Shown: positions 35,759-38,038 of the stretch, piece by piece | Position numbering within the stretch: position 1 is the first letter of the stretch | How the letters are laid out: the number at the start of each line of letters is the position of its first letter | Assembly: GCA_965242865.1 (NCBI GenBank) | Contig: CBDETK010000013.1 | Coordinates: 2,944,001-3,008,000 of the forward strand | Direction: 5' to 3' | DNA length: 64,000 nt | Origin: Candidatus Latescibacterota bacterium | GTDB lineage: Bacteria; Latescibacterota; UBA2968; UBA8231 | The notes under the pieces: generated by a model | The model's database searches: none | What the model was told of the DNA's origin: nothing | Seen by the model: only the letters and a program-made list of their open reading frames with translations | Program-made: the position numbers and the translations under genes

Positions 35759-35800
35759 AAAAAACCGGGCGCACCCGCTAAGATGGGATGCGCCCGGCTG
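35759..35800 (-). terminator. Intrinsic terminator
   Basis: Minus strand agccgggcgcatccc-atcttagc-gggtgcgcccggtttttt. Confidence 0.85.
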
Positions 35801-36043
35801 TACTCTCAGAAGCTGTGCTTCTGACCAGGTAGTCGATCACCTGGAGTTGATCAAGTGATCAACCTCCCTGCGGTACAATTACTACTCAATGGACCACCTC
35901 CTTTCGCTAGTGCGCGCCTCATATCCATACTCCAACTCTGCGCGTCGTTGCGGCCAGTTACAAAGCCGGGCTGGCTCGCTCGCGTAGCCTCGAGCCTCAG
36001 CGTGGCGGCAACAGAGGCTTCACGGCCCCTGAACCCGTCTCGC
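35759..36043 (-). ncRNA. Candidate structured sRNA or micro-ORF mRNA with an extended Shine-Dalgarno
   Basis: Bounded by a promoter and a terminator; contains GAAAGGAGGTGGTCCA and three consecutive hairpins. Confidence 0.55.
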
Positions 36044-36048
36044 CCGTT

Positions 36049-36078
36049 AATATGACGACCACCAAAGAACCGTGTCAA
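36049..36078 (-). promoter_or_regulatory. Sigma70-type promoter
   Basis: TTGACA (36078-36073), 18-nt spacer, CATATT (36054-36049) on the minus strand just after the metG stop. Confidence 0.65.
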
Positions 36079-36103
36079 CTGATTTTTGTCCCGAGCGACC
36101 GCC

Positions 36104-38038
<1,935 letters not shown>

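Follow-up and report, generated by a model that had tools for sequence, protein, structure and literature searches.

The stretch of DNA considered here, called the window below, comprises 64,000 nucleotides from the assembly of a Candidatus Latescibacterota bacterium (GCA_965242865.1, contig CBDETK010000013.1, positions 2,944,001 to 3,008,000), and all positions given for it are counted from its first letter. Between the end of metG, at 36104, and a downstream gene for a zinc-type dehydrogenase (35691-34699), the minus strand of the window carries a small element with, in order, a promoter-like site, a structured 5' domain, an unusually extended Shine-Dalgarno (SD) sequence, a micro open reading frame (micro-ORF), a group of overlapping hairpins and a terminator-like hairpin. 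On comparative grounds, this element is a real, conserved, single-copy and stand-alone small gene of Latescibacterota, a group that to our knowledge is known only from metagenome-assembled genomes (MAGs). As for its function, sequence comparison and fold models lead us to give about an even chance to the proposal that its RNA owes its effect to the ribosomes it engages, by way of a translated micro-ORF and a hairpin in which SD and anti-SD strands are exchanged, and not to the peptide that it encodes.

The transcription unit is framed by recognisable signals. A -35 box TTGACA (36078-36073) and a -10 box CATATT (36054-36049) are separated by an 18-nt spacer and give 10 of 12 matches to consensus; the site is the sole one in the 1 kb between 35400 and 36400, where shuffled sequences average 0.3. 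An alignment of 30 homologous loci shows that the TTGAC core of the -35 box is invariant and that a -10 box of the ATATT type is maintained. An initial annotation, made from the letters of the window, had described this promoter, and it is present as described; its position right after metG holds in the window's genus, but in other genera the neighbours differ. At the 3' end lies an intrinsic-terminator-like, G+C-rich hairpin with a T-run at 35764-35759 (35798-35759 in all), which is conserved in the same alignment and agrees with the strong terminator that had been placed at 35759-35800. A simple terminator scan returned no site at the element, yet both of the folds discussed below predict the terminator hairpin; the scan probably missed it because of a bulge in the hairpin. 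With a conserved promoter and terminator of its own, the element is the stand-alone unit that had been supposed. From the RNA start predicted from the -10 box to the extended SD runs a structured 5' domain of about 137 nt (36042-35906), in which RNAalifold on 17 sequences predicts 34 pairs, eight of them with compensatory changes. This domain is maintained in two genera only, the window's and one other, while other genera have unrelated leaders; the sister family f2 has almost no leader, the promoter standing directly upstream of the SD. A 106-codon open reading frame (ORF; 35851-36171), with the same frame and stop as the micro-ORF, was rejected as a gene on two grounds: it runs across both the promoter and the 3' end of metG, and relatives have 1-nt indels in the 5' domain.

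The element was followed through related genomes in two ways. BLAST found the full 331-nt unit in 28 of the 30 genomes of the window's genus and the core alone (SD, frame and hairpins) in three of the six other genera of the family, and no element in 24 genomes of three sister families. A covariance model, R1, was built from 17 core sequences and searched against 151 genomes sampled from the phylum. R1 matched 58 of 63 genomes of the window's family (f1), spread over about 20 genera, both genomes of family f3 and, weakly (about 21 bits), 17 of 30 genomes of f2; there was a single match per genome, apart from one reverse-strand echo. No match was found in 36 genomes of ten further families. One match among the 19 genomes of family f4 (L165) was set aside as a false positive, being without the frame and the hairpins and resembling coding sequence. 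Loss of conservation in relatives had been named beforehand as an outcome that would count against the element; what the relatives show is that the extended SD is kept and that the pairing of a hairpin covaries. One locus of genus g22 (L145, in genome G115) keeps the SD and a 12-codon frame, but neither the second SD-like arm nor a terminator can be recognised in it, and this copy may be in decay or may have been rebuilt.

The extended SD, here called SD0, covers 16 nt (35905-35890) and is the complement of the 3' tail of 16S rRNA, with one G-U pair; the TTG start codon adjoins it. The prediction of this complementarity was made from the usual 16S sequence. The genome's own 16S gene ends in ...TGGATCACCTCCTTTC-TAAGG, which is the assumed tail, and all 16 positions of SD0 can therefore pair with it. 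In-register pairing was scored around every GGAGG on both strands of the 6.0-Mb genome, and 16 of 16 was reached at only two sites, the element and one other. The second site is taken as the antisense of the 16S 3' end because it is the exact complement of the tail. Runner-up sites reach 14 of 16 (three sites) and 13 of 16 (six sites). Since only the element and the ribosomal DNA antisense attain the full score, the observation is real and exceptional for this genome. All 17 sequences of alignment A1 have the core of SD0, AAGGAGGTGGT, without change; a larger listing of 65 sequences, used below for the frame, chose its sites by the SD0 word and is by itself no proof of SD0 conservation. On these alignments the extended SD hardly varies throughout a class. 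The 5' leader was considered as an anti-SD that sequesters SD0 and was rejected in this role: the ACCGCC/GGUGGU pairing proposed by RNAalifold shows one-sided changes only. Duplexes between leader and SD0 were no better than those of shuffled leaders in 26 representatives (z from -1.6 to +2.2). In these models, SD0 seems to be left free by the leader.

Directly behind SD0, the micro-ORF consists of a TTG start, 11 more sense codons and a TGA stop at 35853-35851 (35889-35851 in all), as had been pointed out for this locus. A survey of the frame took every extended-SD site in the collected loci and the first start codon behind it, giving 65 distinct Latescibacterota sequences; one additional site, interrupted by a contig end, stands outside this number. 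A frame of 9-13 codons is present in 65 of 65, and has 12 codons in 45. The start and stop signals are kept while their letters vary: the start is TTG in 42, ATG in 12 and GTG in 11, and the stop is TGA in 54, TAG in 8 and TAA in 3. Within one genus, the same stop position is TGA in L132, TAG in L152 and TAA in L153. The distance from the GGAGG core to the start is 6-7 nt in 61 of the 65, and 11 nt in one lineage. The frame also persists across indels, with one 3-nt loss, which recurs in an RNA-library contig, and one 3-nt gain within the window's genus. Between genus groups, a one-base loss before an internal SD-like word and a one-base gain after it compensate each other, so that start and stop remain in frame and the residues in the middle go from RRS to GGA. 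In one lineage the TTG is lost and an ATG 4 nt further on is used, in frame with the same stop. With start and stop kept as signals in varying letters and the frame kept across indels, the micro-ORF behaves like a reading frame that is translated.

The peptide itself is far less constant. There are 40 distinct peptides among the 65 sequences, and with this number and the shift of frame in the middle residues the amino-acid sequence is no better conserved than the nucleotides. Codon use in the window's frame is also unusual: eight of the 11 sense codons lie below the share expected from equal use of synonyms, and AGT (used twice), GCA, AGG and ACT each account for less than 10% of their synonym set in this genome of 60.6% G+C. 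Where codons build the SD-like word, every Arg is encoded by AGG, and Gly by GGG or GGA. This word, SD1 (GGGAGG, 35868-35863), lies 9 nt before the stop codon in the window, and across the survey the internal xAGG stands 9 nt from the stop in 49 of 65 sequences and 10 nt from it in 16. Since the peptide varies and its codons are rare, the constraint seems to act on being translated and on keeping RNA words in frame. By eye, no second cistron starting from SD1 or from the second SD-like word (SD2, below), nor a +1 frame running past the stop, has a start or frame kept across lineages.

These data bear on the proposal that the RNA is an mRNA whose product, a micropeptide with 9-13 residues, is functional, with the long SD providing high output and the hairpins stabilising the message; a heavily translated micropeptide had been among the functions first suggested. 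Conservation of frame, start and stop fits this idea, and so do the recurring features of the peptides, namely an N-terminal Ser-Ser (Met-Ser-Ser in many), Ile-Pro in several genera and a C-terminal Thr. Peptides are also better kept in two parallel RNA families discussed below (an RTREVAA core in three actinobacterial loci, and a 14-residue peptide of the CC2171 type). Against these points stand the 40 different peptides and their variable length, the middle residues that shift frame between genera while the SD-like nucleotides are kept, and the fixed choice of AGG, GGG and GGA codons, which suggests a constraint at the level of RNA. The codons are rare for the genome, and the peptides of the sister family (MSEMTSGGGCR, MIATTRRWVV) share no motif with that of the window. 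We consider a function residing in the peptide improbable, and the claim of a heavily translated micropeptide is not borne out.

The part of the RNA around and behind the stop codon contains complementary words. The last codons together with the stop form an anti-SD-like word, and downstream of them follow SD2 and a second anti-SD-like word. In the minimum-energy fold, these segments make up one long hairpin, here called ALT (35870-35826). Its 5' strand (35870-35852) consists of SD1 and the 3' end of the ORF through the first two bases of the stop; its 3' strand (35843-35826) consists of SD2, CAGGTGATC, and CCTG. The window's RNA takes this form at minimum energy, and so do 53 of 61 distinct sequences. 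Its helix of 17 pairs is paired in 95.1% of cells in an alignment of 44 distinct sequences, compared with at most 46% in slid controls, and four of the pairs change on both sides. Compensatory cells number 44, against 9.7 +/- 5.8 in shuffled alignments, none of 500 of which reaches 44; cognate arms pair at -19.8 kcal/mol and non-cognate arms at -16.3 kcal/mol, a difference that none of 10,000 permutations reaches, with the qualification that the sequences are related and that both tests overstate significance for this reason. The compensatory changes across genera are plain by eye.

The initial annotation had drawn this region as three back-to-back hairpins enclosed by a short stem. The complementarity on which its first two hairpins were based is present, and the third is predicted; the folds give ALT, which covaries, in place of the first two. 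The second of them, here H2, pairs CCAGGT with ACCTGG around the loop GATCGACT (35844-35825). As the main fold, the combination of hairpin 1 and H2 was rejected, being the minimum-energy fold in only eight of 61 sequences with no covariation in H2; it was retained as an alternative state. Hairpin 3 (35824-35806) is supported by folds and alignment and consists of TCAGAAGC, the loop ACA and GCTTCTGA. In the window it is about 17-20 nt shorter (at 35817-35812) than in nearly all congeneric species, and the long form is seen in three of the four RNA libraries described below. The two further SD-like words noticed inside the hairpins, SD1 and SD2, are present and conserved. The closing stem, P0, joins TGTAC within the ORF (35877-35873) to GTACA just before the terminator (35803-35799). 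It is predicted by the folds, and among 61 of them it attains at least 4 bp in 36. Its letters vary by genus, with TGTAC/GTACA, AGTAC/GTACT and ATACC/GGTAT, and, by eye, CAATCA/TGATTG in another.

Pairing of this kind could also suit an RNA that is not translated, for example one that guides or protects the 16S 3' end during maturation or decay, or a trans-acting small RNA (sRNA) that masks the SDs of its targets. The pairing of SD0 extends to the last bases of the 16S tail, beyond the need of initiation, and two anti-SD-like words are present; C/U-rich loops are the means by which many regulatory sRNAs target SDs. A purely non-coding reading leaves the kept start, stop and frame unexplained, both anti-SD-like words are buried in ALT when the RNA is free, and the neighbouring genes point to no target or maturation factor. 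Such a role, of which the regulation of 16S 3' maturation had been suggested at the outset, is considered unlikely.

The effect of a ribosome at the end of the frame was modelled by excluding positions -15 to +14 around the stop from pairing in 18 representative folds. With this mask, H2 forms in 10 of the 18. The masked fold of the window's own RNA, in which the loop is short, is a different one: the freed 3' strand of ALT pairs with SD0 (8+3 bp), without H2. The 3'-terminal hairpin is unchanged by the mask in 17 of the 18 representatives. The spacings and folds permit the following scheme, in which the RNA engages ribosomes. A 30S subunit would be captured at SD0 and the frame translated, which would unwind the closing stem and the 5' strand of ALT. 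With the stop in the A site, SD1 would be just out of the ribosome, 6-7 nt from the P-site codon, where the anti-SD can pair with it. This spacing equals that between GGAGG and the start at SD0, so that an anti-SD first engaged on SD0 could take SD1. The freed 3' strand of ALT would refold as H2 (or, in the window's RNA, with SD0); the former partner of SD1 would move to SD2, whose own partner would meanwhile be being decoded. The ribosome might thereby be held at the stop, and the RNA would switch from one to the other of two states as ribosomes occupy or leave it. The output could be the holding of ribosomes, or a report of ribosome availability through the shape or stability of the RNA. Holding, first suggested as a 30S sponge or parking RNA, is plausible, and what speaks for it is geometry only, namely the 16-nt SD0 and the placing of SD1 9-10 nt from the stop.

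Parts of this scheme recall known systems. At the RF2 (prfB) site, an internal SD before an in-frame stop, at a shorter spacing, drives a +1 frameshift into a long frame, and pausing driven by SDs is known. The element resembles prfB in having an SD-like word in frame at a fixed short distance before a stop. It differs in that its spacing is of the initiation type, with the P-site codon 6-7 nt away. By eye, lineages share no frame downstream of the stop, and the inserts of 17-20 nt in hairpin 3 would break one; there is no tie to one release factor, because all three stops occur. In STAB-SD elements, a strong SD binds 30S subunits without serving a normal gene and acts as a 5' stabiliser, whereas the SD of the element is followed by a conserved frame. 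Dual-function sRNAs such as SgrS/SgrT, SR1/SR1P and VcdRP are likewise small and structured, were at first regarded as non-coding and contain a translated small frame; their products are conserved small proteins, about 30-45 residues long, and their base-pairing targets are defined, while the frame of the element has 9-13 codons and its peptide is weakly conserved.

Sequence data from RNA libraries touch on both the existence of the RNA and its extent. Six libraries carry a small share of a 701-nt stretch, and four of them, from four studies, were aligned. In three of the four, the element is covered by short contigs only, all ending inside it, with lengths of 164 nt in one library, 251 nt in another and 70 and 99 nt in the third; a separate contig on the downstream gene is present in one of these three. 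Since the contigs are 85-99% identical to the window, they come from relatives. Contig depths are 121-822 for the short contigs and 8-11 for two flanking contigs, values that are unfit for ranking genes. The short contigs are a hint, and no more, that an abundant small RNA is expressed.

Several observations weigh against the view that the RNA works by engaging ribosomes. In the fourth library (X16), a 2195-nt contig spans the element and the downstream gene; read-through or DNA could account for it, and in that sample it counts against an RNA that is strictly discrete. The contigs in general give no strand, ends or level, and parts of the stretch that they leave uncovered are no sign of absence. 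The switch is derived from energy models and from a mask around the stop, the masked folds are not uniform, and H2 can pair in 99.4% of cells and yet has no two-sided change. Furthermore, the eight sequences mentioned above fold, when free, as hairpin 1 with H2 instead of ALT, and the kinship of the sequences inflates the covariation tests. The recurring residues of the peptides leave some room for a peptide role. Very long SD pairings are thought to hinder the escape of ribosomes, which could mean that the frame is poorly translated. A chance intergenic sequence or a decayed relic without function was considered as well. Conservation across more than 20 genera with covariation and maintained signals, the uniqueness of the SD0 match in the genome and the coverage of the element by RNA-library contigs reduce that explanation to a negligible one.

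The genes around the element vary. Among four genera typed with Pfam, the neighbours differ, and the downstream gene encodes a dehydrogenase, an epimerase or, in one genus where it is convergent, a URO-D-like protein. In two more lineages an untyped protein of about 740 aa is encoded downstream. Because the neighbours differ by genus and because most lineages have a -10 box belonging to the element, it is regarded as a stand-alone gene. This arrangement bears on the possibility of a cis-acting leader-peptide attenuator that controls the downstream gene, here the zinc-type dehydrogenase. In attenuators of the erm and cat type, ribosome occupancy of a short frame selects among alternative pairings with SD-like words, and the short frame, alternative pairings and terminator of the element do resemble such a layout. 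There is a downstream gene on the same strand in the window's genus and in at least three other lineages, and the X16 contig extends into it. An attenuator would be hard to reconcile with downstream genes that differ by genus, with the convergent orientation of one of them and with the element's own conserved promoter; the element also has no regulated start codon within the switched hairpin. The terminator hairpin is the same in masked and unmasked folds for 17 of the 18 representatives, with no anti-terminator predicted. Control of the downstream gene in cis is thus very unlikely.

A wider scan with an exact pattern covered 185,579 species genomes and returned 61 loci, of which 30 were judged by eye to be true members. 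The other 31, lying in coding-looking sequence by eye, were dismissed as chance matches. True members are labelled Latescibacterota or Latescibacteria (23), with a Gemmatimonadota-type label (6) or as 'uncultured bacterium' (1). The six with Gemmatimonadota, Gemmatimonadetes or Gemmatimonadaceae labels (L047, L054, L059, L067, L069 and L088) are MAGs with a Latescibacterota-type element, and these elements are nearly identical to those of the window's genus or of a related genus. A design pattern that recovers 61 of a set of 63 true members had no match among 201 genomes from the phylum to which a MAG labelled Longimicrobiales belongs, and for this reason the Gemmatimonadota labels are probably a matter of classification. 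R1 found nothing in five genomes of other phyla, in a run without a positive control.

Comparison with known RNA families gives no membership. At the gathering score, Rfam 15 has no match in the 64-kb window and none in the loci of 16 relatives; the element is thus unlike tmRNA, 6S RNA, the RNA of the signal recognition particle and RNase P, as the initial annotation had judged, and equally unlike T-box and the other RNAs of Rfam 15. An Rfam hit had been named there as grounds for giving up the idea of an undescribed RNA. None exists at the gathering score; below it, there is a match to CC2171 and, for one relative, to Ms_IGR-5. The best match of the element is to CC2171 (RF01867), an alphaproteobacterial sRNA of the Caulobacter type, with 26.6 bits against a cut-off of 75, at 35913-35766 on the minus strand (E 0.0014 in 801 bases, 0.0025 in the whole genome), and it is the best match of this model in the genome; relatives score 23.9-25.1 bits. 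The cmscan alignment spans model positions 1-159 with the architecture in register, several pairs being non-standard, and the separate folds of the element arrive at this layout too. Two other matches of the model in the genome (20 and 18.8 bits) lie in coding-looking sequence and were taken as noise. The Ms_IGR-5 model (RF02471) matches nowhere in the genome, even with E values of up to 10 allowed. Among sister-family relatives L147 comes closest, with 37.3 bits against the cut-off of 45; genuine actinobacterial Ms_IGR-5 loci (four, L148-L151) score 84-86 bits, and R1 in turn gives these loci 9.5-12 bits only.

Similarities of design are more extensive than these scores. The CC2171 consensus, like the element, begins with a full complement of the 16S tail and has a start codon immediately next to it, and its hairpins are enclosed by a stem that reaches almost to the terminator. 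CC2171 differs in having longer frames (14-29 codons) with better conserved peptides and an SD with A where the element has G. By eye, and uncounted, it is without a fixed internal SD before the stop and without an SD/anti-SD hairpin. At least 119 distinct sequences of the CC2171 type, with SD and GTGTC, occur in metagenome contigs (L172-L290); among the matches listed, all complete sequences have a frame of 14-29 codons, and one 14-residue peptide ends in TAA, TAG or TGA. CC2171, filed as a non-coding sRNA, may well be translated, to judge by these frames. Ms_IGR-5 opens, over its first 20 or so bases, with a near-identical word that it has in common with sister-family Latescibacterota (ACACAAG-R-AAGGAGGUGGUC), and it shares an internal GAGGUGGCUG with a sister-family member, the frame relative to GAGGUGGCUG differing by one base. 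Its SD has G for A at the same position as the element, giving a G-U pair with 16S. The three loci that were read have 12-codon frames, ending in TAG, TAA and TGA and with a shared RTREVAA core, and they contain an internal GAGGUGG some 11 nt short of the stop. In two of three folded loci the end of the ORF is the 5' strand of a long hairpin, as in the element. Ms_IGR-5 also stands alone, and there is no conserved neighbourhood; its peptides are unrelated to those of the element and its downstream structure is different. By these comparisons, the element fails membership by score in both families, shares the full design of Ms_IGR-5, and shares with CC2171 the extended SD, the small frame and the layout of stem and terminator.

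Published work provides some evidence of expression for both families. CC2171 was shown by Northern blot to be expressed in Methylorubrum, without a condition that affects its level being identified (bioRxiv 10.1101/2022.01.24.477521). Homologues of Ms_IGR-5 are described as carrying ribosome-profiling reads in two mycobacteria (PMC4974804), and Ms_IGR-5 was detected by RNA-seq in two Streptomyces (PMC8079986, PMC8780764). A search of the literature, which did not extend to supplements, found no paper that gives CC2171 or Ms_IGR-5 a function or notes their shared design, and none that describes such an RNA in Latescibacterota.

These parallels invite a broader and more tentative suggestion, which we think rather unlikely as a whole. 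CC2171, Ms_IGR-5 and the Latescibacterota element might be lineage versions of one class of RNA for test-driving or parking ribosomes, present in at least three phyla. Each would have an SD for the full 16S tail and a micro-ORF that walks the ribosome to a stop; in two of the versions a second SD would recapture the anti-SD, and the RNA would serve to hold or count ribosomes, or to test the quality of their 16S 3' ends. The element is not categorically new, and it links two orphan families across phyla. If the proposal for the element is right, it describes a small RNA whose substrate is the ribosome. Its SD pairing would be among the longest in nature, its frame would be maintained for the act of translation rather than for the peptide, and its strand-exchange hairpin would pass an SD to a ribosome at termination. 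The proposal would also offer a first working hypothesis for the two orphan families, which are widespread in Actinobacteria and Alphaproteobacteria and testable in laboratory species. Such an RNA bears on the sensing of free ribosomes, on the limits of SD pairing and on the question of how many 'non-coding' sRNAs are translated. Read plainly, the data add a well-defined, class-wide RNA gene to Latescibacterota.

Elsewhere in the genome, outside the window, the 12-nt word GGAGGTGGTCCA occurs at least 11 times on contig C13, and a cluster of about 1.5 kb accounts for nine of these occurrences. The sites lie at reverse-strand offsets of about 3881430-3882972, 4392448 and 4392856. At a guess, they may represent a repeated Gly-rich protein motif rather than SDs.

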